From Gammaproteobacteria bacterium (GTDB taxonomy: Bacteria > Pseudomonadota > Gammaproteobacteria > JBCCGL01), in NCBI GenBank assembly GCA_965277715.1, contig OZ255836.1:2432001-2496000 (forward strand): 64,000 nucleotides of DNA. The letters run 5' to 3'. Each line of letters begins with the position of its first letter. Within the stretch, counting starts at the first letter, position 1. Both the position numbers and the translations under genes were made by a program. The notes beneath the pieces are model-generated. The model did no database searches. It saw only the letters and a program-made list of their open reading frames with translations, and was not told the origin of the DNA. Below, piece after piece: positions 10,395 through 28,600 of this stretch.

Positions 10395-10404
10395 AGAAGG
10401 AAAA

Positions 10405-11411
10405 GGGGTCAATCGTATTTAATATTTTTCAAACGGTTGCAAACCTGCTCAAACACGCCCTTCAAGCTGCCGTCTGACAGCCCACTCTTTACATAATCAA
10501 TTGCAGGAGAAAGGCTACTCAACCAGCGTTTTTAACGGCATATCCCCCAATTGCTGACAACAATATATCGCTACTTTACGAGGCAGATTCGCCCGTTGTC
10601 TCCCCCGCTGTCGCGTAAGTACATCACTCGCGTTAACGCCAAACACCGCTGCCACTGCATCGACTATAGCTGCACCGTTTGGCTTGCCCGTCACAATACG
10701 GGACAAGTCCCCCGATATGTGCATCGACTCCCGGTTTTCGGCAATATACGTCTTGAAGGATTTGTCACCCAGTATCGTCGTCACATTGCCTTTGTTATAA
10801 AAACGGCTAATGTCCTCATCAATACCTTGACCAACATATGTCTTATAAGCAACGTAACGTTGTTTAGCGCCGAGTGCACTATAGGTTGCCTCTCGATACA
10901 ACCATTCCGGTGCTTTGGCTTGGTTGATGTAAGCGTGGTAACTCGACCAGGAATAGCTATCGAGCTTATCCGCTGTTACACCCTTTACTTCTATTGGGTT
11001 ACGATGAATGTAACGGCTTAAGGGTAATAAATAGTCGTCTGCATCCACAATAATCGCTTTATAACGACCGCGAAAAAGAGGCCCATCCGTGCGTCTAAGC
11101 CGGTTGTAGCGTTGTGTGTAGATACCATTGATATGCCGCATGATGCGATCCAGGTTAGCACGAGGGGTTTCGATCAATAGATGATAATGATTACCCATCA
11201 AACAGTAAGCGTGGATGCAGGCATCAAAGCGTTTATGTGCTTCATTGAGCGTTTGTAGAAATGCCTGGTAGTAAACTTCGCCATGAAAGATGGTCTGTCT
11301 GGCTTTGCCACGATTCATAACGTGGTAGTAGGCATTTTCGTATTGTATTCGAGTAGGTCTAGGCATCGTTTAAATTTATACTATTTTGAAAATATTAAAT
11401 AGGATTGACCC
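10405..11411 (-). mobile_element. TIR-flanked Y1/HUH (RAYT-related) transposase element, copy 1
   Basis: GGGGTCAATCGTATTTAATATTTTTCAAA at 10405 and inverted TTTGAAAATATTAAATAGGATTGACCC ending at 11411 enclose the gene. Confidence 0.85.
10515..11366 (-). CDS. Y1 HUH transposase (REP-associated type) with C-terminal HTH, C-terminally truncated
   Basis: MPRPTRI...YHVMNRG; YCLMGNHYHLL (HUH); GPLFRGRY; YIHRNP (catalytic Tyr); WSSY. A ~23-bp deletion versus copies 2 and 3 gives an early stop. Confidence 0.9.
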   Translation of the reverse strand: MPRPTRIQYENAYYHVMNRGKARQTIFHGEVYYQAFLQTLNEAHKRFDACIHAYCLMGNHYHLLIETPRANLDRIMRHINGIYTQRYNRLRRTDGPLFRGRYKAIIVDADDYLLPLSRYIHRNPIEVKGVTADKLDSYSWSSYHAYINQAKAPEWLYREATYSALGAKQRYVAYKTYVGQGIDEDISRFYNKGNVTTILGDKSFKTYIAENRESMHISGDLSRIVTGKPNGAAIVDAVAAVFGVNASDVLTRQRGRQRANLPRKVAIYCCQQLGDMPLKTLVE

Positions 11412-11606
11412 GAATGGCACTTCCTTAAGGCGTAAGCAACTGATAGTAAAGAGTTTATTTATTCTTTCTAAGAAACAAAAATGATATTTTGAAAGTTGCC
11501 GCCAATGATAACCGGGATAGTTTTACAAATATTGCTTTCAAAAACCATATGCCAAGTTATCTTAACCAAACACGTAATACCAATACTTTCAAATACTTAC
11601 AGCTTA
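11412..11606. mobile_element. IS4-type MITE (right TIR lost)
   Basis: Starts GAATGGCACTTCCTTAAG; body nearly identical to 16229-16436 and 25125-25333. Confidence 0.85.
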
Positions 11607-11617
11607 CGAAAAAGGGG

Positions 11618-12493
11618 TCAATCGTATTTAATATTTTTCAAACGGTTGCAAACCTGCTCAAACACGCCCTTCAAGCTGCCGTCTGACAGCCCACTCTTTA
11701 CATAATCAATTGCAGGAGAAAGGCTACTAACACGACTATATCCAAACATATCAACCAGCGTTTTTAACGGCATATCTCCCAATTGCTGACAACAATATAT
11801 CGCTACTTTACGAGGCAGATTCACCCGTTGTCTCCCCCGCTGTCGCGTAAGTACATCACTCGCGTTAACGCCAAACACCGCTGCCACTGCATCGACTATA
11901 GCTGCACCGTTTGGCTTGTCCGTCACAATAAGGGACAAGTCCCCCGATATGTGCATCGACTCCCGGTTTTCGGCAATATACGTCTTGAAAGATTCGTCAC
12001 CCAGTATCGTCGTCACATTGCCTTTGTTATAAAAACGGCTAATGTCCTCATCAATACCTTGACCAACATATGTCTTATAAGCAACGTAACGTTGTTTAGC
12101 GCCGAGTGCACTATAGGTTGCCTCTCGATACAACCATTCCGGTGCTTTGGCTTGGTTGATGTAAGCGTGGTAACTCGACCAGGAATAGCTATCGAGCTTA
12201 TCCGCTGTTACACTCTTTGACTTCTATTGGGTTACGATGAATGTAACGACTTAAGGGTAATAAGTAGTCGTCTGCATCCACAATAATCGCTTTATAACGA
12301 CCGCGAAAAAGAGGCCCATCCGTGCGTCTAAGCCGGTTGTAGCGTTGTGTGTAGATACCATTGATATGCCGCATGATGCGATCCAGATTAGCACGAGGGG
12401 TTTCGATCAATAGATGATAATGATTACCCATCAAACAGTAAGCGTGGATGCAGGCATCAAAGCGTTTATGTGCTTCATTGAGCGTTTGTAGAA
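11618..12493 (-). pseudogene. Y1 HUH transposase copy 2 (5'-deleted, frameshifted near 12215)
   Basis: Near-identical to copy 1, split over two frames; stop TGA overlaps the TGACCCC TIR; homology ends at 12493. Confidence 0.9.
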
Positions 12494-12555
12494 CTGAACG
12501 CTAAAAATTGAATGAACGATTAAAAAATTGTTGAATTTAACTGCGGGTCCATATA
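12494..12555 (+). mobile_element. Isolated right end of the IS1111/IS110 element
   Basis: CTGAACGCTAAAAA...TTGTTGAATTTAACTGCGGGTCCATATA matches 21779-21840 and again abuts TGACCCC. Confidence 0.8.
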
Positions 12556-12615
12556 TGACCCCTTTGACCTTTCCCCTTTGACCTTTTTTTGTGTTCTGGC
12601 ATTGCCAATGGAGTG

Positions 12616-13037: not shown

Positions 13038-13868
13038 TTACTTGCAGGAACACAGACTAGGCCCTCCAGAAGAATTACCACCATAATACGGATCATTTCC
13101 CTGACAAAATGAGCCGGGGACAGGCTGAGACGGAGGCGGCTGAACTGGGCATGAGCAACTAGGTTGTTTTCTGCGCGATGGCGGCCGCTTCGAATGTGGT
13201 ACCCTTGGATCATTCAAATTCTCAAGCAGTTCATGAAGAGGCCTGTTAAATCCAGGCGTCCGATATATCTCTCCATCAGGGTCGAAATAGATAAGCGGGT
13301 TCGCAAGCACATACAAAAACAAATTAGCATCTCCTGCTTTAAAGTTCTGTATACCAAATTGTTCTATAACTCCGTGAATACCTAACGGATCAACTGATAT
13401 ATATCGCCCAATGCTTGGATCGTAATACCGGAAGTAGTTGTAATGCAGTTGTGATTCACTGTCGTAATACTGCCCAACAAACCGCAAATTCACAACAACA
13501 TCTTTACCGTTGCCATCTGGATCACTTTTACTCAGCGTATCACCAAATGCTTCACCCTCCCAACGCCATACAATATTCCCACCTGAATCCATCGCAAAAC
13601 GGGGCGTCATCAGGTGATCAGTGTGAAGGTAGTAGATTGTATCGCTATCTGCAATAGCATCATATTCAATTTGTGCTATAGGCGCATAATCCAGTCAGAT
13701 ATAATCCTTTATAGGTTCTCCTCGCTCATTCGTTTCACTTATCAGCATTCCCTGAAAATCATAATATTAGACGGTGGTGCTAATAGTATTATCCGTATTA
13801 ACCACCACTTTACGCGTGCGCTGCCCCATCGCGTTATGGATGTAAGTCGCCTTTAGTGCGCCTTCGAT
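13038..13868 (-). pseudogene. Orphan Rhs core remnant + C-terminal toxin (cassette 1)
   Basis: Core copy of 26484-26080 with two nonsense changes (near 13696 and 13769); NLRFVGQY, RYYDP, DPLG...DPDG; distinct Pro/Cys-rich CT (open 13038-13610). Confidence 0.88.
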
Positions 13869-14065: not shown

Positions 14066-14085
14066 GGAAAAAAGGGGTCAAGGCA

Positions 14086-14293
14086 GAATGGCACTTCCTT
14101 AAGCTGTAAGTATTTGAAAGTATTGGTATTACGTACTTGGTTCAGATAACTTAGCATATGGTTCTTGAAAGCAATATTTGTAAAACTATCCCGGTTATCA
14201 TTGGCGGCAACTTTCAAAATATCATTTTTTTTCTTAGAAAGAATAAATAAACTCTTTACTATCAGTTGCTTACGTCTTAAGGAAGTGCCATTC
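14086..14293 (-). mobile_element. IS4-type MITE (inverted copy)
   Basis: 18-bp TIRs GAATGGCACTTCCTTAAG / CTTAAGGAAGTGCCATTC; flanked by GGGGTCA (14074) and TGACCCC (14299). Confidence 0.9.
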
Positions 14294-14327
14294 TAGCCTG
14301 ACCCCTTTTTCTTTGTTTTCATTTTTC

Positions 14328-15209: not shown

Positions 15210-16073
15210 TTAAGAACAATACCCAGTCTCATCGGCGGGGAATCTAGGTGGCCAGGTCTGAGGTGGCCAGGTGTTCTTTGGATCTGGAAACTCTGGTAAT
15301 TTTGGCCATACTTGATCTGGGTCTGGAAGGTTTTGCCGAGTTCGCTCTCTATACTCACCTTCTCTCACTTTTTGCTCCTGCTCTCGCTGAGCTTTTCGAG
15401 CTTCTCTATTAGATGGTGTACGTACTGGTATATTCCGCAGAGAAGTATAATTCTCTCCCATACTTGGATAAAATCTGCCACGATGCCAAGTACCAGAACG
15501 CCCTCCATAGGAACCAGATGTCCGAGGATTGCTTGTGGTTCTTCCTCTCGACAAACCATAATAGTCACTCCAGTAAAGTGGATTTCCCTCAACATACCCG
15601 TAAGTATTAATCCCACCATATAGTCCAATCGGATCGTGGGTTATATACCTTCCAGTAGTAGGGTCATAGTATCGGAAGTAGTTATAGTGAAGTTGTGATT
15701 CACTGTCATAATACTGCCCAGCAAACCGCAAATTCACAACAACATCTTTACCGTTGCCATCTGGATCACTTTTACTCAGCGTATCACCAAATGCTTCACC
15801 CTCCCAACGCCATACAATATTCCCACCTGAATCCGTCGCAAAACGGGGCGTCATCAGGTGATCGGTGTGAAGATAGTAGATTGTATCGCTATCTGCAATA
15901 GCATCATATTCAATTTGTGCTATAGGCGCATAATCCAGCCAGATATAATCCTTTATAGGTTCTCCTCGCTCATTCGTTTCACTTATCAGCATTCCCTGAA
16001 AATCATAATGGTAGACGGTGGTGCTAATAGTATTATCCGTATTAACCACCACTTTACGCGTGCGCTGCCCCAT
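15210..16073 (-). CDS. Orphan Rhs core + C-terminal toxin (cassette 2)
   Basis: HTDHL.TP, NLRFAGQY, RYYDP, DPIG...NP...DYYGL, then a unique Arg/Pro-rich CT. Confidence 0.88.
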   Translation of the reverse strand: MGQRTRKVVVNTDNTISTTVYHYDFQGMLISETNERGEPIKDYIWLDYAPIAQIEYDAIADSDTIYYLHTDHLMTPRFATDSGGNIVWRWEGEAFGDTLSKSDPDGNGKDVVVNLRFAGQYYDSESQLHYNYFRYYDPTTGRYITHDPIGLYGGINTYGYVEGNPLYWSDYYGLSRGRTTSNPRTSGSYGGRSGTWHRGRFYPSMGENYTSLRNIPVRTPSNREARKAQREQEQKVREGEYRERTRQNLPDPDQVWPKLPEFPDPKNTWPPQTWPPRFPADETGYCS

Positions 16074-16228: not shown

Positions 16229-16436
16229 GAATGGCACTTCCTTAAGACGTAAGCAACTGATAGTAAAGAGTTTATTTATTCTTTCTAAGAAAAAAAATGA
16301 TATTTTGAAAGTTGCCGCCAATGATAACCGGGATAGTTTTACAAATATTGCTTTCAAGAACCATATGCCAAGTTATCTGAACCAAGCACGTAATACCAAT
16401 ACTTTCAAATACTTACAGCTTAAGGAAGTGCCATTC
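16229..16436 (+). mobile_element. IS4-type MITE, complete, with 11-bp target duplication
   Basis: Perfect 18-bp TIRs; TAGCCTGACCC duplicated at 16218-16228 and 16437-16447. Confidence 0.93.
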
Positions 16437-16562
16437 TAGCCTGACCCCTTTTATTCTTAAAAAAAAGCCAAGAGATTCACGCCCGAAATCAGACGAAGCA
16501 TGGACTCGCGAACTGTCTGACTTCTTATTGGGTGTGAATAAACTTATCGAACAGGATGATTT

Positions 16563-16876: not shown

Positions 16877-17761
16877 CTATTTTTGGAATCGTTTATCGTT
16901 CAATAATTTCCATGCCTTTTTGTATTCCTTGCTGTTACCCCGTCTTATTTCTTCAAGTGTTTTGCCTCTAAGGTTTTCGGGGAATTCGCGATTGATACTG
17001 CCCTTACAGTTTTTTCCAATCCAGTCATCAGCTTTGCTACCAAACTTATCAAGTGCATCTTGTGCAGCTTTTCTCAGTTTCGGATCAGACAGCGCGTCCA
17101 TTATGTTTCTTATCTGACGGGTATTACCACGCGCTATAGCTTGCATCAATGCTGCACGAAGTGAATCAAGACCGGTTGGGTCAATAAAGTTAACGGGATT
17201 CTGTTCAGCATAGCCATACAAATGGTTTAGCGAACCATACAGCCCTTCCGGCGAGATAAGCCCCATTTGGACAGCGATTTGCAACTGTGGGTCACTGTAG
17301 TCGCGTAGGATACCAATTGGGTCAGCAGTTAAATACCTTCCGAGACTGGGGTCATAGTATCGGAAGTAGTTATAGTGAAGTTGTGATTCACTGTCATAAT
17401 ACTGCCCAGCAAACCGCAAATTCACAACAACATCTTTACCGTTGCCATCTGGATCACTTTTACTCAGCGTATCACCAAATGCTTCACCCTCCCAACGCCA
17501 TACAATATTCCCACCTGAATCCGTCGCAAAACGGGGCGTCATCAGGTGATCAGTGTGAAGGTAGTAGATTGTATCGCTATCTGCAATAGCATCATATTCA
17601 ATTTGTGCTATAGGCGCATAATCCAGCCAGATATAATCCTTTATAGGTTCTCCTCGCTCATTCGTTTCACTTATCAGCACTCCCTGAAAATCATAATGGT
17701 AGACGGTGGTGCTAATAGTATTATCCGTATTAACCACCACTTTACGCATGCGCTGCCCCAT
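16877..17761 (-). CDS. Orphan Rhs core + C-terminal toxin (cassette 3)
   Basis: Rhs homology begins at 17768; DPIG...NP...DPTGL; CT ends CKGSINREFP..L..KTLEEI...AWKLLND.RF.K. ATG 17761 chosen because upstream sequence is palindromic non-Rhs DNA. Confidence 0.88.
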   Translation of the reverse strand: MGQRMRKVVVNTDNTISTTVYHYDFQGVLISETNERGEPIKDYIWLDYAPIAQIEYDAIADSDTIYYLHTDHLMTPRFATDSGGNIVWRWEGEAFGDTLSKSDPDGNGKDVVVNLRFAGQYYDSESQLHYNYFRYYDPSLGRYLTADPIGILRDYSDPQLQIAVQMGLISPEGLYGSLNHLYGYAEQNPVNFIDPTGLDSLRAALMQAIARGNTRQIRNIMDALSDPKLRKAAQDALDKFGSKADDWIGKNCKGSINREFPENLRGKTLEEIRRGNSKEYKKAWKLLNDKRFQK

Positions 17762-18394: not shown

Positions 18395-18619
18395 TCATCG
18401 TCCAAGGGCCGGGGTTTATCCTCGGCTCTTTCCCGGCGTTGGTATTGGGGACTGGCGGCTAAAGAAAAAAAGCACTTGCAAAGCGGATGAATTTAGTGGA
18501 AAAGGTGTGTCTAGGTAAAATTTTTAGAGGTATAGGGTTGTATCAGGGGAATTGTGCGTTAAGTGATTGTCCTTACTGGGAAAAACCGGCGGCGAACGAT
18601 GAGTGGGCATCGGAGCAAG

Positions 18620-19161
18620 TACTTGCTGGGCAGTATTTTGATCAAGAAACCAAACTGCACTATAACTACTTCCGGTATTACGATCCAAGTACAGGGCGAT
18701 ATGTAACTCATGATCCGATTGGGTTATACGGTGGATTTAATACTTATGGATATGCCTATCAAAATCCACTTTATTGGATAGATTTATTCGGCTTGGATGT
18801 TATTTGTGAAGATGGTGTAGTAAAGCCAACTGATCCAACTCTTCTTGATATTTTGAAAAAAATAGATGAAAAATACCCAAATAAAGATGTCAATGTTACA
18901 AGTGGCACTAGAACACCGGAGCATCAAGAACGGCTTAGGCCTGGTACTGGGTACGGTACTAACGGTACAAAAGTAAGTGATCATGTCAAAGATCGTGCTG
19001 CAGATGTTAAAGTTGATGGTGTTTCATCATCTGATGTTGCAGATCTTGCAAGGGAATTAGGAGCGTCTGGAACTATACCATATAAAAACCACACACATGT
19101 TGATACAAATCCTAATAGGCAATATCATCCTAGGCCATCAGCTTTGCCATCATCACAATGA
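18620..19161 (+). CDS. Orphan Rhs-CT with peptidase M15-like (D-Ala-D-Ala Zn peptidase fold) toxin (cassette 4, inverted)
   Basis: LAGQYFDQET...DPIG...DLFGL, then VTSGTRT, SDH...AAD and HTHVD motifs; 29 bp identical to the main rhs at 26068-26096; ORF open from 18487. Confidence 0.82.
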
Positions 19162-19604: not shown

Positions 19605-19631
19605 TAAATACAAATGAAAGGGATCATATAT

Positions 19632-21191
19632 CAATGGCACTAAGTTAAGCGGTTTTAGCGGGTAAAATAAACGAAAAAATAACTGTAATAAACCCAATAA
19701 AAAAGGCTGAAATGTTATAATTTTGTATGAAAAATACAACCTTATTTCTACCCGGATTCAACATCCAAACACTCCGCAAAACACCCCGTTCAGCCATTCA
19801 AATCTTGCACGATAAGATAGCAAAAATACGTCACAAATCACTGAGTGAACTACCTGTTTTTCTTGGCGATATTATACCCACGAATATTCTTAAACCGAAT
19901 GATTTTGGTGTGAATAGTCGTCGACGTATTTTCAGTAAAGAAAATACTTTCTGGTTGTTTTTTTCACAAATAATGAACGCCGATGGTGGCTGTAAAGAAG
20001 TCGTTAGACAACTGCAAAATGTCGCCCACAACCAAGGCATTCCCATACCTTCATCATCCACCTCCGCCTATTGCCAAGCACGTAAAAAACTACCCATGGA
20101 CGATCTTAAAAACGTATTTTCAGGGACGTGTCGATTATCGCCACCTCAACCCAAAGCGCTCCAAGGTCGACCGGTTATCGTTGCCGATGGGACAGGCCTA
20201 TCCATGCCCGATACGCCCGCGAATCAACAAACTTACCCACAACCGAAATCACAAAAACAGGGATGCGGATTTCCTCAAGCACGGCTTTTAGCTTGTTTTA
20301 ATCTTTATAGCGGTTTAATTCTGAGCTATGCACTAGGAAATAAAAAAAGTCATGAGCTAAGACTTTTAGAAGAACAATGGGATACCTTCAATGAAGGTGA
20401 CATTTTCTTAGGTGATAAAGGTTTTTGCAGCTTCTACGATATTGACTGCCTCTCTCGACGAACGGTTGACAGTGTCGTTACATTGGCGCGGAGAACGCCC
20501 AGCACTGCCTCCCAGGCCAAAAAGAAGATAGCCGATAATGACCTTCATATTGAATGGCAAAAACCTAAACACACAAAAGCGACCCGTTACACAAAAGAGC
20601 AGCATAGCGACCTTCCAAAGACCTTAACTTTACGACAAATACACGTCAGTATTGTACGAAAAGGATTTAGGACGAACCATTTTTATATCATCACGACACT
20701 ACTTGATGCTCAGCAATATCCCGCTATAGAAATTATCGACCTCTATGCACAGCGCTGGAATGTGGAACTGTATTTTCGCAATATTAAAACCACCATGGGT
20801 ATGGATATATTACGCTGTAAAACACCTGATATGGTTCGTAAGGAAATCATCATGCACATGATTGTTTACAACACGATCAGGCACATCATGTGTGTCGCTT
20901 CATACCGACATGACACACCGGTTGATCGGCTAAGTCTTAAAGGTGTTTTGCAAACACTCCGACAAAGCACTTCATCACTTGGTAGTGGGCAGAGTCCAGC
21001 ACAAAAAAGACGGCAATATCTTGATTATTTATATGCAGCGATTGCGGATGATCGTGTGCTTCATCGACCTTTTAGATTTGAACCAAGAGTGGTAAAAAGG
21101 CGACCTAAACCACGGGCATTAATGACTCGACCAAGGAACGTTTTAAAAACTGAATATTGGCAAGCTAAAGCGGCTTAACTTAGTGCCATTG
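19632..21191 (+). mobile_element. IS4-family (IS4 subgroup) insertion sequence
   Basis: Perfect 19-bp TIRs CAATGGCACTAAGTTAAGC; flanks are not duplicated. Confidence 0.92.
19727..21178 (+). CDS. IS4-family DDE transposase
   Basis: ADGT, GFPQAR, LGDKGF, LY..RWNVELYFRNIK (YREK), EPRVVKRRPK. Confidence 0.93.
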   Translation: MKNTTLFLPGFNIQTLRKTPRSAIQILHDKIAKIRHKSLSELPVFLGDIIPTNILKPNDFGVNSRRRIFSKENTFWLFFSQIMNADGGCKEVVRQLQNVAHNQGIPIPSSSTSAYCQARKKLPMDDLKNVFSGTCRLSPPQPKALQGRPVIVADGTGLSMPDTPANQQTYPQPKSQKQGCGFPQARLLACFNLYSGLILSYALGNKKSHELRLLEEQWDTFNEGDIFLGDKGFCSFYDIDCLSRRTVDSVVTLARRTPSTASQAKKKIADNDLHIEWQKPKHTKATRYTKEQHSDLPKTLTLRQIHVSIVRKGFRTNHFYIITTLLDAQQYPAIEIIDLYAQRWNVELYFRNIKTTMGMDILRCKTPDMVRKEIIMHMIVYNTIRHIMCVASYRHDTPVDRLSLKGVLQTLRQSTSSLGSGQSPAQKRRQYLDYLYAAIADDRVLHRPFRFEPRVVKRRPKPRALMTRPRNVLKTEYWQAKAA

Positions 21192-21549
21192 GCCTCTGAT
21201 CACCACTGCCTTGTTTACAGCAATGGGCGATCCGGGTTTTTATAAAAACGGGCGTGAGTTTTCCGCCTTTTTGGGTCTCGTTCCTCGTCAATATAGTTCG
21301 GGGAGCAAAACGCAACTCAAAGGTATCAGTAAACGCGGGGACGAACACGTGCGCACTTTGTTGATACAGGGGGCGCAAGCGGCATTAAGTCGAATGCCTA
21401 AACACGATGATGGGCTAAGTCGTTGGGCCTGTCGTGTCAAAGCACGTCGGGGCCATTGTGTGGCGGCGGTGGCATTGGCCAATAAGCTCGCCAGAATTAA
21501 CTGGGCGGTAGCGGCTAATAATACAACTTACGTGTATAAAACAGCTTAA
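21192..21549 (+). pseudogene. IS110/IS1111 transposase C-terminal fragment
   Basis: F.NGREFSAFLGLVPRQYSSG.K..L.GISKRGD...RTLLIQGA...A.VALANKLARI.WA; cut at the IS4 end. Confidence 0.9.
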
Positions 21550-21840
21550 TAACGTCGTTGAAGATTTCTTACCACGAGGTAGCGAAAGAGCAGTAAATGG
21601 TATAACAGGTTAAACCGGCTCAGACAGAACCTGGAGGGGGTCATGGTCTTCACAGACCGATTGCTTGATGAGGTGTCTGAGCACGGTTCCCATTATGGCT
21701 CTGGACGGATAAACAAATACAATCCGTCCTATTGAGAAGCCGAATATATGACTGCTAACCTTATTTACTGTGGCTGCTCTGAACGCTAAAAAATGAATGA
21801 ACGATTAAAAAATTGTTGAATTTAACTGCGGGTCCATATA
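21550..21840 (+). ncRNA. IS1111 right non-coding end, predicted bridge/seek RNA
   Basis: Stem GCTCAGACA(21618)/TGTCTGAGC(21674) with inner hairpin GGTCT-TCAC-AGACC; second hairpin GGACGGAT/ATCCGTCC; TTGAAT -35 and GGGTCCATATA end. Confidence 0.6.
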
Positions 21841-21882
21841 TGACCCCTTTTACTGATCCCTTTTCTCTTTTCTCTCTCATTT

Positions 21883-22449
21883 TTAATCTTTAAGTCTTTC
21901 ACTATAAGGATCTTTAGCTGCCACAGATATTGTTAGCCCTATACATTGAACAAAAATCAATATTCCTAACATACGAAACAAAAACCCTTTGTGGCCTTTC
22001 ATCAATAAAATTGCTAAATACTTTTTTGCAAATATATGCCCTAAATTCGATGCACGTTCATAATATTGCAACGCCCTTTCTTTATCTGATGTTACACCAC
22101 GCCCTATATCGTATATCCAACCAAGCCGAAACAAAGCAGGTGAATATTTATTTTCTGCTGCTTTAAGATACCAAATTTTAGTTTCTTCAAAATCACCTTG
22201 CTTCGCATAGAGTTTAGCTAAATAAAATTGCGCCTCTGAAGATCCAAGTTTCGCCGCATGCTTATAATAGAAAAAAGATTTTTCAAAGTCTTTTTCAACC
22301 CCTAATCCCTTCTGATACATCCAACCAAGAAAAACTTGACTAGGGACAGAACCTTCTGCAGCTAGTTTTTTGTATATTAAAAAGGCTTTTTTGTATTCTT
22401 CATCATAGTAATGCTGCTCAGCAATTGTATATTGATCTTTATTTGACAT
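21883..22449 (-). CDS. Sel1-repeat (TPR) immunity protein (cassette 5)
   Basis: Repeated LG..Y..G.GV.KD..KA..YY..AA..G Sel1 units. Confidence 0.88.
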   Translation of the reverse strand: MSNKDQYTIAEQHYYDEEYKKAFLIYKKLAAEGSVPSQVFLGWMYQKGLGVEKDFEKSFFYYKHAAKLGSSEAQFYLAKLYAKQGDFEETKIWYLKAAENKYSPALFRLGWIYDIGRGVTSDKERALQYYERASNLGHIFAKKYLAILLMKGHKGFLFRMLGILIFVQCIGLTISVAAKDPYSERLKD

Positions 22450-24072: not shown

Positions 24073-24098
24073 AGAGCAGAAAAAAGAAAAGAAAAAAA

Positions 24099-25124
24099 GG
24101 GGTCAATCGTATTTAATATTTTTCAAACGGTTGCAAACCTGCTCAAACACGCCCTTCAAGCTGCCGTCTGACAGCCCACTCTTTACATAATCAATTGCAG
24201 GAGAAAGGCTACTAACACGACTATATCCAAACATATCAACCAGCGTTTTTAACGGCATATCCCCCAATTGCTGACAACAATATATCGCTACTTTACGAGG
24301 CAGATTCGCCCGTTGTCTCCCCCGCTGTCGCGTAAGTACATCACTCGCGTTAACGCCAAACACCGCTGCCACTACATCGAATATAGCTGCACCGTTTGGC
24401 TTGTCCGTCACAATAAGGGACAAGTCCCCCGATATGTGCATCGACGGTTTTCGGCAATATACGTCTTGAAGGATTTGTCACCCAGTATCGTCGCCACATT
24501 GCCTTTGTTATAAAAACGGCTAATGTCCTCATCAATACCTCGACCAACATATGTCTTATAAGCAACGTAACGTTGTTTAGCACCGAGTGCACTATAGGCT
24601 GCCTCTCGATACAACCATTCTGGTGCTTTGGCTTGGTTGATGTAAGCGTGGTAACTCGACCAGGAATAGCTATCGAGCTTATCCGCTGTTACACCTTTTA
24701 CTTCTATTGGGTTACGATGAATGTAACGGCTTAAGGGTAATAAGTAGTCATCTGCATCCACAATAATCGCTGTATAACGACCGCGAAAAAGAGGCCCATC
24801 CGTGCGTCTAAGCCGGTTGTAGCGTTGTGTGTAGATACCATTGATATGCCGCATGATGCGATCCAGGTTAGCACGAGGGGTTTCGATCAATAGATGATAA
24901 TGATTACCCATCAAACAGTAAGCGTGGATGCAGGCATCAAAGCGTTTATGTGCTTCATTGAGCGTTTGTAGAAATGCCTGGTAGTAAACTTCGCCATGAA
25001 AGATGGTCTGTCTGGCTTTGCCACGATTCATAACGTGGTAGTAGGCATTTTCGTATTGTATTCGAGTAGGTCTAGGCATCGTTTAAATTTATACTATTTT
25101 GAAAATATTAAATAGGATTGACCC
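24099..25124 (-). mobile_element. TIR-flanked Y1/HUH transposase element, copy 3 (gene 24103-25079, frameshift near 24445)
   Basis: Same TIRs as copy 1; the first 223 aa keep HUH and YIHRNP; a 4-bp deletion separates the C-terminal HTH. Confidence 0.88.
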
Positions 25125-25333
25125 GAATGGCACTTCCTTAAGGCGTAAGCAACTGATAGTAAAGAGTTTATTTATTCTTTCTAAGAAACAAAAATGATAT
25201 TTTGAAAGTTGCCGCCAATGATAACCGGGATAGTTTTACAAATATTGCTTTCAAAAACCATATGCCAAGTTATCTTAACCAAACACGTAATACCAATACT
25301 TTCAAATACTTACAGCTTAAGGAAGTGCCATTC
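25125..25333 (+). mobile_element. IS4-type MITE, complete
   Basis: 18-bp TIRs; flanks AGGATTGACCC / AGGGTTGATTC look like a decayed 11-bp duplication. Confidence 0.9.
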
Positions 25334-25399
25334 AGGGTTGATTCCTTTTACTATTTGATTGATATTAAATTGCATTGACCCCTTTTATGCAGAGCGCTA

Positions 25400-25620: not shown

Positions 25621-28600
25621 TTATTTACAATGTGGGTTACCAGAGGTTCGGTTACCTAGATACGGAATCGCTGGAAAACGGCCATCCTCATCTGGTATAG
25701 GAAAATTAGAAGCCCCTATTTTACCACTAAATTTTATTCCTGATTTTATTGGGAAAGCCACGTATACAGGACCTGCAGGTATACTAAGATATCCAAGATC
25801 GGCAGCTATATTTCTAACTAAGTTAATAGTATTAGCATGTTGTATCTGTGAATTAGTACTACCTCCATATGGATTTCTCATCATAGGCGCAGTATGTGCA
25901 GGGAAAAATGTACTTGCACCGAATAAGCCGTATATGTCACTCCAATATAGTGGATTCCCTTGAACATAGCCATAAGTATTAAACCCACCATTGAGTCCAA
26001 TCGGATCACTCTGAGTATACCGTCCAGTGGTAGGATCGTAAGTCCTAAAGTAGTTGTAATGTAAGTCGGTTTCTTGATCAAAATACTGCCCAGCAAACCG
26101 CAAATTCACAACAACATCTTTACCGTTGCCATCTGGATCACTTTTACTCAGCGTATCACCAAATGCTTCACCCTCCCAACGCCATACAATATTCCCACCT
26201 GAATCCGTCGCAAAACGGGGCGTCATCAGGTGATCGGTGTGAAGGTAGTAGATTGTATCGCTATCTGCAATAGCATCATATTCAATTTGTGCTATAGGCG
26301 CATAATCCAGCCAGATATAATCCTTTATAGGTTCTCCTCGCTCATTCGTTTCACTTATCAGCATTCCCTGAAAATCATAATGGTAGACGGTGGTGCTAAT
26401 AGTATTATCCGTATTAACCACCACTTTACGCGTGCGCTGCCCCATCGCGTTATGGATGTAAGTCGCCTTTAGTGCGCCTTCGATAAATAACTGATCCCAA
26501 CGGTTCGCGTCGTTATAGGTTCTCGTTTGACTAGGCTGTACAGGCACAACCGCGTTGTTACCCCGGAAACGTTTTTCGACGAAATTAAGCCGGTTACTGT
26601 CAGGCGAGTAGTCGTAACGGGTCATTTCCAAGTCATTTCTAACACGGCTCGTTCGGTTACCATTTAAGTCGTATCCATATGAGTCTGAAGTGCCACCTTT
26701 GATTCTGTCATCTATTAGCCTATCTAAGGCGTCATACTGATAACCACTGTCTTGAGGTGTTGTAGTGCGACTGAGGATATTGCCATTGGCATCGTAACTA
26801 TAGTTGCGTGAGTCGATAGCACCTGTGTTCTGGCTTACCAAACGCCCCTGTAGATCGTAACTACGGCTCTCTTGTAAACCATTACCTATAGTACAACTCA
26901 ATAAACGATTATCACCCCGGTAGGTAATACCGTTAGCTACTGTGTGATCCGAACCATTTATCTCCGCACCTATCGAATCTACTCTGCGCACTCCATCCCT
27001 ATTAATTGTTATCGCTCGACCACTGGGGTAAGTCATGCCAATTAAGTTATCACCGTTATCGTAACGGTAGCGCGTAACATATTCCTGACTTAATTCTACC
27101 TTAGTCATACTGACAACATTGCCATGCGCATCGTAAGCGTAACTGTAGGTGCCACTTTCATCTTCAACACCGCAAAGCCTTCCCGTGCCATAAGGACAAT
27201 TGTCATAAGTGTATGTCACATTCTCAGAACTATCCGGGAACGTTTTCGACACCAATCGCTCAAGCTCATCATAGATATAATCGACAACAATACCTCTTGC
27301 ATCTGTCATTCGGGTTAGGTTATTAACCAAGTCATAGCTATAGCGAATCTCTCCGCGATCTGAACTAGACTCTTTGGTTCTTCTAGCCAACAGATCATAT
27401 TCATAGCGGGTTGTCACACTATTTGGCGCGACAACCTCGGTAACCTGATCACGCGTATCATAGGCATAGCGAGTGGTGCCACTTAGTCTATGTACATTTG
27501 AAATTTTTCTATCAGCCCGGTCGTAACTATCACTCTCAGTATTCCCATTAGGATCAGTGACACTAATACTGTTGTTATTTTTATCCCAACCAAAACGAGT
27601 TATAGAATCCTCATCATCGGTATGCGGAACTGCTATACGCTCCAGACGATTACGGTTATCAAAGTATTGTTGGAGCGTTAAGGCAAGACTACTATCACGA
27701 TTAAGACTGTCAGTTTTAATCAAATTATTATAGGCGTCATACACCATTCGTATTTGCTGGCCCAAGTTATCAGTAACACTTGAGAGCCTCCCTTTAGCAT
27801 CATACACAAATGTCATTACAATGCCGTCCGGTGTAATAGTTTGCGTGTTTTGCCCCGCCTCGTCGTAGCTATATTGCGTAATTTTTACATTACCTGCCTC
27901 ATTCGCCGGTGGAGTCTCAACAACGCGCTCAACGAGCCCCTGGTTATTATAGAAATAAGCGGTGTCCAAACCTACCGGATCAACCATCCGGGTAACAAGG
28001 CCACGAGTATCATAACTCATTGTCGTTGTGTGCCCTAAATGGTTGGTAATAGAGGTAGCATTACCCTTTTCGTCTCTGATCCAGTTAGTCGTGTGGCCAC
28101 GGGGGTTAGTGATTTTAGTTAATAGACTGTGCTTATCGTAAGTATAATTATAAGCCGCTTGATTAAAACTTTCTTGTATACGCAGGATATTGCCTAACGC
28201 ATCAAAATCTTTCTCCATAATCGAACCATTTGGGCGCGTTGTGCTAACAGGCAAGCTATTTTCATCACGTTCAATAGTTGTGGTTCTATGTAAGAAATCT
28301 GTTACGCGAGTTGGGTAGTTTCTATCGTCCGTCTCTTGAATTACTCTGTTGCCGTTAGGGTCGATATAAATATTTTCAACATCTCGATTCAACGGCGGAC
28401 CATCAGCCAACTGTGTAGGTGAGGCAGTTTCAGCATCAGAATCCAGTAACCCTATAACGTGGCTAATTTGAAAACTCAGTGTACTGCCATCTGGCAAATG
28501 GGCACGCTTTACGCGTCCAGAAAAATCGTATTCGTATCTCTTTGTGTTACCGCGTTGATCCGTTTGTGCACTCATCAGGTGAGCTTGCCCTGATTGATAC

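Follow-up and report, generated by a model that had tools for sequence, protein, structure and literature searches.

The locus considered here raises the question of whether a broken insertion sequence, left without most of its transposase gene, may still carry the RNA that selects a target for its family and, if so, which DNA that RNA would read. The locus lies in a 64,000-nt window (the whole stretch of DNA that was analysed, contig OZ255836.1, positions 2,432,001 to 2,496,000 of the forward strand), and all coordinates below are those of the window. The answer proposed, which we regard as probable on the evidence of comparative sequence analysis, is that the locus is a decayed 3′ piece of an insertion sequence of the IS1111 group that keeps a complete guide-RNA gene at 21604-21763, with two guide-bearing regions recognized by homology, and that intact copies of the element would insert to the left of GACCCCT. 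The features on which this proposal draws are collected in Table 1.

Table 1. Features of the IS1111-type remnants, of the guide-RNA gene and of the adjoining DNA, in window coordinates.
Feature	Position	Strand	Basis or remark
IS4-family element interrupting the IS1111-type copy	19634..21191	+	ORF 19727-21178 matches PF01609 and PF13006; inverted ends
3′ remnant of an IS1111-type insertion sequence	21192..21841	+	left limit, IS4 right end stops at 21191; right limit, homology with relatives and empty site of L003
Transposase C-terminus (Transposase_20)	21211..21549	+	PF02371, E 2.7e-16; without the N-terminal DEDD domain
seekRNA / bridge RNA homologue	21604..21763	+	small hairpin, target-binding hairpin, donor-binding multiloop with second hairpin; covariance model
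5′ strand of the target-binding internal loop, predicted to read the right half-site on its top strand	21634..21644	+	same columns as the strand that reads the right flank in relatives; pairs with 21840-21847 over 8 nt without mismatch
3′ strand of the target-binding loop, predicted guide to the left half-site (7 nt) and the first 2 nt of the right half-site	21660..21668	+	likeness to relatives
Putative guide to the left end of the element, with the family-wide CAU	21687..21693	+	CAT/TAT columns of the alignment
Predicted donor-side guide, repeating the last 6 nt of the right end and the first 3 nt of the right flank	21744..21752	+	identical to 21836-21844
Right subterminal inverted repeat	21826..21837	+	aligns with the right repeats of relatives
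Right half of the target site (GACCCCTT)	21842..21849	+	common to the second remnant and at least seven other contig flanks, at least to 21848
Second remnant, last 63 nt of the same element	12494..12556	+	left side fused to a truncated Y1 transposase gene; GACCCCTT from 12557

The larger of two remnants in the window lacks the left part and the left end of the element, and holds the last 112 codons of the transposase followed by a non-coding tail. The long non-coding region 3′ of tnp is thus present, extending for 292 nt from the stop codon (21547-21549) to the right end. The sole Pfam match of the 112-residue ORF is PF02371, at 60.2 bits against a cut-off of 21.3, and the N-terminal DEDD (RuvC-like) domain, PF01548, is absent from this copy, the gene being severed by the IS4 element at 21191/21192. 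As the IS4 element adjoins upstream and only the C-terminal domain is present, the IS110/IS1111-type copy is merely a 3′ piece. A left end was sought by way of the reverse complement of the subterminal repeat, for which the only exact matches in the window were the two right ends; with up to three mismatches there were 48 matches where 55 are expected, and neither a left end nor a left flank was found. The copy is therefore a dead fragment, immobile by itself, and without catalytic domain and left end there is no working recombinase at this locus. In the protein collection the nearest full-length transposases are 80% identical, 341 aa long and carry both PF01548 and PF02371, and 341-aa homologues with both domains continue from this identity downward; a protein 96% identical to the window piece is itself truncated, at 211 aa.

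Both remnants adjoin GACCCCTTT, and their right ends are copies of one repeat, alike over 69 nt at 98.6% identity and over 93 nt at 90%. A first-pass annotation, made from the bare sequence, had noticed that the right end joins TGACCCC twice, and GGGTCCATATA does occur at 12545 and at 21830, with TGACCCC after each. At the larger remnant GGGTC of the right subterminal repeat and GACCC of the target half-site are complementary (21830-21846), such that the right junction forms a 5-bp hairpin with a 7-nt loop. No target duplication of the IS4 element (19634-21191) is visible, and its left flank (19616-19633), read on the minus strand, resembles an IS1111-type right junction with its flank at 14 of 16 positions; taken together, the likeness and the missing duplication suggest either that two IS1111-type copies were rearranged by way of the IS4 element or that this is a second site, of a TGATCCC variant.

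Relatives of the element were gathered from plasmids by tblastn with the 112 residues (50-57% identity), and 18 loci were taken, 16 of which have a homologous tail. L009 lacks the homologous tail; L020, which has an internal duplication, was left out of the alignments and kept in the tables of flanks. Genome and metagenome contigs yielded distant relatives only, L001 (52%, itself interrupted) and L002 (43%), and these were not used. At the DNA level a search of the plasmids gave one weak match only, and the right end was not found in viral contigs.

That the tail encodes a structured RNA is indicated by its fold, in which the 298 nt from 21550 reach -100.7 kcal/mol against a shuffle mean of -70.3 (z -6.27; none of 200 shuffles as good). 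The covariance model, built from the 16 plasmid relatives with the window left out, matches 21604-21763 over its entire length (model positions 1-159 of 159; 83.3 bits, E 7e-20), and no other match in the window is better than E 0.19. On the alignment of the 16 relatives the consensus structure pairs 92.1% of cells, whereas shuffles give 73.7%, with none of 500 reaching the value of the alignment, and the paired cells fall to 28-46% when the partners are slid along the alignment. Compensatory changes that alter both sides are seen at 17 of the 23 pairs. A comparison with Rfam returned four matches, all far below their gathering scores (E 0.64-4) and to unrelated families, and no family fits. 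The suggestion of the first-pass annotation that this is an IS1111-type bridge or seek RNA is therefore borne out, by the covariance model and by covariation among relatives, at the level of homology.

All 16 tails share one plan. A small hairpin is followed by a long one, which is closed by an apical stem and interrupted by an internal loop, and then by a conserved strand containing CAU, a second hairpin, the conserved CCGRAU, about ten variable bases and GCA. The stem that had been drawn at 21618/21682 reappears as 21618-21625 / 21675-21682 in the minimum-energy fold, and the two strands of the loop within it had been placed rightly, GAGGGGGTCA at 21634-21643 and GATTGCTTGA at 21659-21668. 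The first-pass annotation had named one observation that would speak against its reading, namely that the strand GGGGGTCA be paired in a stem rather than lie in the target loop. In the single-sequence fold seven weak pairs, worth 6.2 kcal/mol, do join the two loop strands; these pairs are missing from the family consensus, in which the strand lies in an internal loop, with the two-pair helix 3 on one side and the apical helix 4 on the other. As the seven pairs are not conserved and occur only in the single-sequence fold, the strand is taken to be free at the level of the family.

Which strand reads which DNA was addressed in a table of 17 elements. It comprises the window, L020 and, of the 16 aligned relatives, the 15 that have a right end (L005 lacks one). 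Both loop strands, the 5′ one with a length of 11 nt, were taken by coordinates, as were the right junction and the segment that follows CCGRA; the left flank was taken for 15 elements and is missing for the window and for L013, for which no left end was found. The reverse complement of the 5′ loop strand matches the right junction of its own element with a mean exact run of 7.12 nt, compared with 3.07 nt for the junctions of other groups. Runs of at least 7 nt occur in 10 of 17 elements (8 nt in the window) and in none of 230 cross-group pairings, and because no cross-group pairing reaches 7 nt the match of guide to flank exceeds chance. The strand of the window in particular has a run of at most 5 nt with the junctions of the 16 other elements. 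The strand GGGGGTCA occupies the position that reads the right flank in relatives, as had been expected of it. One mismatch in length remains, in that the window guide has five G against four C in the flank, leaving a G:T wobble. The rule is not free of short runs: own-flank runs are below 7 nt in 7 of 17 elements, with runs of 5 nt or less in L016 (where the run is 2), L019, L004, L008, L012 and L018. These elements may occupy poor or rearranged sites; either the rule that joins guide and flank has exceptions, or the copies with short runs lie at rearranged sites.

The other strands were assigned in the same way. The 3′ loop strand agrees with the left flank of its own element at 4.93 of 7 positions (n=15), as against 1.97 in 168 cross pairings. 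In the segment after CCGRA the first six bases repeat the right end, at 6/6 in 14 of the 17 elements, and the next three equal the first three bases of the flank in 8 of 17, the window included, compared with 2.2% of cross pairings. It had been noted from the window alone that ATATATGA stands at both 21744-21751 and 21836-21843; this match falls within the 9-nt segment of Table 1, and the same position repeats the right junction in every relative. In two close relatives, L014 and L015, one base of the flank differs, and a matching change is found in both the loop strand and the donor-side segment. At alignment columns 101-103 CAT is present in 16 of 17 sequences and TAT in L017; by our own reading, the strand that contains it in L003, L006 and L012 can pair with the bases that open the left end.

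The geometry of the site is given most directly by L003, for which an empty site is available on two other Cupriavidus plasmids (L021, L022). The half-sites abut there, and the element sits exactly between them. The right end and the left flank finish in the same base in 13 of 15 elements, which amounts to a 1-nt overlap. The 3′ loop strand corresponds to seven left bases and the first two right bases, at 9/9 in L003 and L012 and at 7/9 in L004, L011, L016, L017 and L018. By the boundary of L003 the right end in the window lies at 21841 and the right half-site at 21842-21849, and the 3′ strand of the window (21660-21668) ends in GA, the first two bases of that half-site. The full site of the window element is thus predicted to be 21660-21666 followed by 21842-21849. 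The first-pass annotation had put the boundary one base further left; the best placement is 21841|21842, although the 1-nt overlap leaves both defensible. Its way of joining the loop strands, with an overlap, into a single target is consistent with the empty site seen for L003. A core of two bases, AT, was considered as well, for which the left guide would sit in another register and two extra bases would come between the half-sites; it was ruled out, as the half-sites of L003 abut. A search for empty sites by gapped motif on five rhizobial plasmids found none, and the left flank of L015 matched itself only. For L006 an 89% homologue of the site (L023) lies at a different locus and is a hint only.

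The model that may be constructed from these correspondences has two recognition regions. In the target-binding loop the 5′ strand (21634-21644) would pair with the top strand of the right half-site (…AT GACCCCT) and the 3′ strand (21660-21668) with the bottom strand of the left half-site. In the donor-binding multiloop the 3′ strand (21744-21752), which repeats the right end with three bases of the flank, would serve as one donor guide, and the 5′ strand (about 21687-21693) would read the left end. Intact copies of the family would then insert directly to the left of GACCCCT, with the one-base overlap (T). We infer that the element family is still active, that the RNA is made and is bound by the transposase, and that the left half-site corresponds to 21660-21666 read as DNA.

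Further right junctions of the element were obtained by comparing 21100-21950 with contigs of four sponge-metagenome runs. The contigs follow the element to its right end and diverge after 21848, 21850, 21851 or 21854 into at least seven different sequences. With the two window junctions included, all right flanks share GACCCCT and most share GACCCCTTT. Had copies been found at sites unrelated to GGGGTCA, the first-pass annotation would by its own account have been contradicted; instead at least seven other right flanks all carry GACCCCT. Insertion at one specific sequence is seen for the right side only, from the two window junctions and at least seven contig flanks. Upstream of 21191 the contigs carry different, non-IS4 sequence, and therefore copies uncut by the IS4 element exist. 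The window copy differs from the runs at seven positions, of which 21304, 21500, 21535 and 21598 differ from all four runs, 21733 and 21743 from the three runs that cover them, and 21312 from run X5 only; these differences fit a decaying copy or a difference between strains.

The guide itself varies among the contigs, in that its G run (21636-21640) counts three, four or five G. The run at 21636 is one base shorter in both of the two X6 contigs and in part of X5 (depth 4375 of 11856); in X1 it is one base shorter in 129 of 618 and two bases shorter in 194 of 618; X4 has no shorter form. By inspection, the form with four G is complementary to nine consecutive bases of the junction. One X6 contig joins a MITE end and its outer flank, as found at 16443 of the window, to the interior of the element at 21620, and this join is either another truncated copy or an insertion of the MITE.

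The motif read on the right side is common in the window. GGGGTCA or its complement occurs 19 times, against about 8 estimated by chance, and 11 of the 19 occurrences are preceded by a run of A and form part of repeats, namely the inverted ends, of about 33 nt, of three Y1_Tnp + Bac_DnaA_C elements and the 54-nt ends of a 240-bp MITE. All of these ends contain the full right half-site GACCCCTT. The left guide, in contrast to this, matches the Y1 and MITE ends in register at 3-4 of 7 positions, about what the fixed last base and chance would give. The predicted 15-mer (21660-21666 with 21842-21849) has no site in the window with two or fewer mismatches. With three mismatches there are seven sites, four of them MITE ends, and with four mismatches fifteen, five of them ends of Y1 elements; the 22 sites with up to four mismatches compare with a shuffle mean of 15 and a maximum of 23 in 20 shuffles, an unremarkable count. 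One Y1 end resembles the left guide if one extra base is allowed, a bulge without precedent in the relatives. No insertion inside an otherwise intact TIR was seen in this material. The statement that the RNA is programmed against the Y1 TIR motif therefore goes too far: the right half-site GACCCCTT is indeed shared, but the left guide is mismatched, and the MITE ends share the half-site equally. The cognate site may be part of a repeat located beyond the window. A bolder reading would have the IS1111-type element home, by its guide RNA, on the 8-bp terminus GACCCCTT of unrelated co-resident mobile elements (the Y1-DnaA_C transposons and the 240-bp MITE) as a parasite of transposon ends, with the G run of the guide, at three, four or five residues, acting by its length as a natural slippage switch between related targets; we consider this unlikely.

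The co-resident elements are of some interest in themselves. Fusions of an IS200-like Y1_Tnp domain with a DnaA C-terminal helix-turn-helix are found at 10401-11416, 11610-12493 and 24095-25386, one intact, one truncated and one frameshifted, and are bounded by their inverted ends of about 33 nt, which start GGGGTCAAT. Such ends are not usual in Y1 transposons. The MITE, of about 240 bp, lies at 14069-14310, with further copies at 11412-11642, 16229-16463 and 25125-25349, and copies are nested in the ends of Y1 elements.

Other explanations of the match between loop and flank may be weighed against these data. It could be proposed that the loop strand 21634-21644 reads the end of its own element, the GACCC of the flank being the complement of the subterminal GGGTC, and so would pair with the repeat of the left end. 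Such a proposal draws on the pairing of 21830-21834 with 21842-21846 in the fold, by which the target half-site resembles the left subterminal repeat. However, in the 16 relatives the same columns track the variable right flank and not the conserved subterminal repeat, and the segments that read the ends sit elsewhere, in the multiloop; the proposal is accordingly held to be very unlikely. It is also conceivable that the two junctions of the window descend from one old insertion that was later duplicated and that the match with the guide is a chance 8-mer. By our own count the 21 nt past TGACCCCTTT are still about 62% alike at the two sites, as a duplication would leave them. However, the metagenome contigs supply at least seven further right flanks that differ from one another, and the absence of any 7-nt run from the cross pairings (0/230) speaks against a chance match, so that this explanation retains hardly any credibility.

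A third possibility places the choice of site with the protein, which would recognize the hairpin-like ends of repeats, the match with the RNA being incidental. The sites are indeed the ends of repeated and partly palindromic elements, and in most right flanks the shared T residues that follow GACCCC extend past the reach of the guide. However, among elements whose targets are unrelated the guides change together with the flanks, and the published reprogramming of ISEc11 was achieved by a change in the RNA (PMC11187229). Selection by the protein is for these reasons judged highly improbable, and recognition by the RNA, with the loop strands reading the two half-sites, is the explanation carried forward.

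The arrangement is close to that of known systems. In IS1111 elements the guide RNA is located downstream of tnp, the segment that matches the top strand precedes the one that matches the bottom strand, and the two matches overlap on the target (PMC11187229). In ISEc11, ISPa11, ISKpn4 and ISPst6, for which the seekRNA has been shown experimentally (Siddiquee et al. 2024, PMC11187229), the long non-coding region is likewise 3′ of tnp, and the order of strands in one hairpin and their overlap in the target are those predicted here. These elements have subterminal inverted repeats, of which the window copy keeps the right one, and they insert site-specifically, as is seen here for the right junctions, with little or no duplication. 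In contrast to that group, the window copy is a fragment, its target differs, and the C-terminus of its transposase is distant from the plasmid relatives used (50-57% identity).

As is proposed for the RNA of the window, the RNA of IS621 has separate guide regions for target and donor, and in both of them one strand reads the top and the other the bottom of the DNA (Durrant et al. 2024, PMC11208160; Hiraizumi et al. 2024, PMC11208158). Handshake guides, bases that match the other DNA after exchange, are described there for IS621 (PMC11208158), and the three flank bases copied in the window segment resemble them. The RNA of the window differs from that of IS621 in lying in the right end and not the left, and in carrying its donor guides in the multiloop, where the donor-binding bases are found in many IS1111 orthologues (PMC11208160). 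Further, the overlap of donor and target appears to be 1 nt here (13 of 15 elements), as compared with the CT dinucleotide reported for IS621. An association of an IS1111-type element with a small repeat family that offers many sites is likewise described for Coxiella burnetii, in which IS1111 uses the QMITE2 palindrome as its insertion site (Wachter et al. 2018, PMC5896051); the repeat family, the motif and the host, here a sponge-associated bacterium, all differ.

Two of the plasmid relatives, IS1111-type elements too, are likewise aimed at other repeats, as the Pseudomonas mandelii relative (L006, with L023) is located within an IS5-family transposase gene and the Cupriavidus relative (L003, with L021 and L022) in sequence that is repeated on several Cupriavidus plasmids. 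IS4321 and IS5075 are said to be IS1111-family elements that land in the ends of other mobile elements. Their site lies in such an end, whereas the window element shares only the right half-site with the ends of this kind.

With this locus an uncultured sponge symbiont contributes one more natural pair of guide and target to those of the IS1111-type RNA-guided recombinases. The mechanism has been published since 2024 and the copy is dead, and therefore the window element is an ordinary fresh example that opens no new question. The comparison of 16 plasmid elements maps its clade, with a loop strand for each flank, a 1-nt overlap of end and target and a donor segment that copies three bases of the target, and such a map helps to decode other members. 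Among the neighbours of the locus is a 300-nt block present in four copies of 89-92% identity (13381-13680, 15625-15924, 17313-17612 and 25997-26296), in a region that also contains an ORF with an RHS domain (15210-16073) and a peptidase M15 ORF (18487-19161); the array looks like Rhs-type toxin tips with orphan cassettes.
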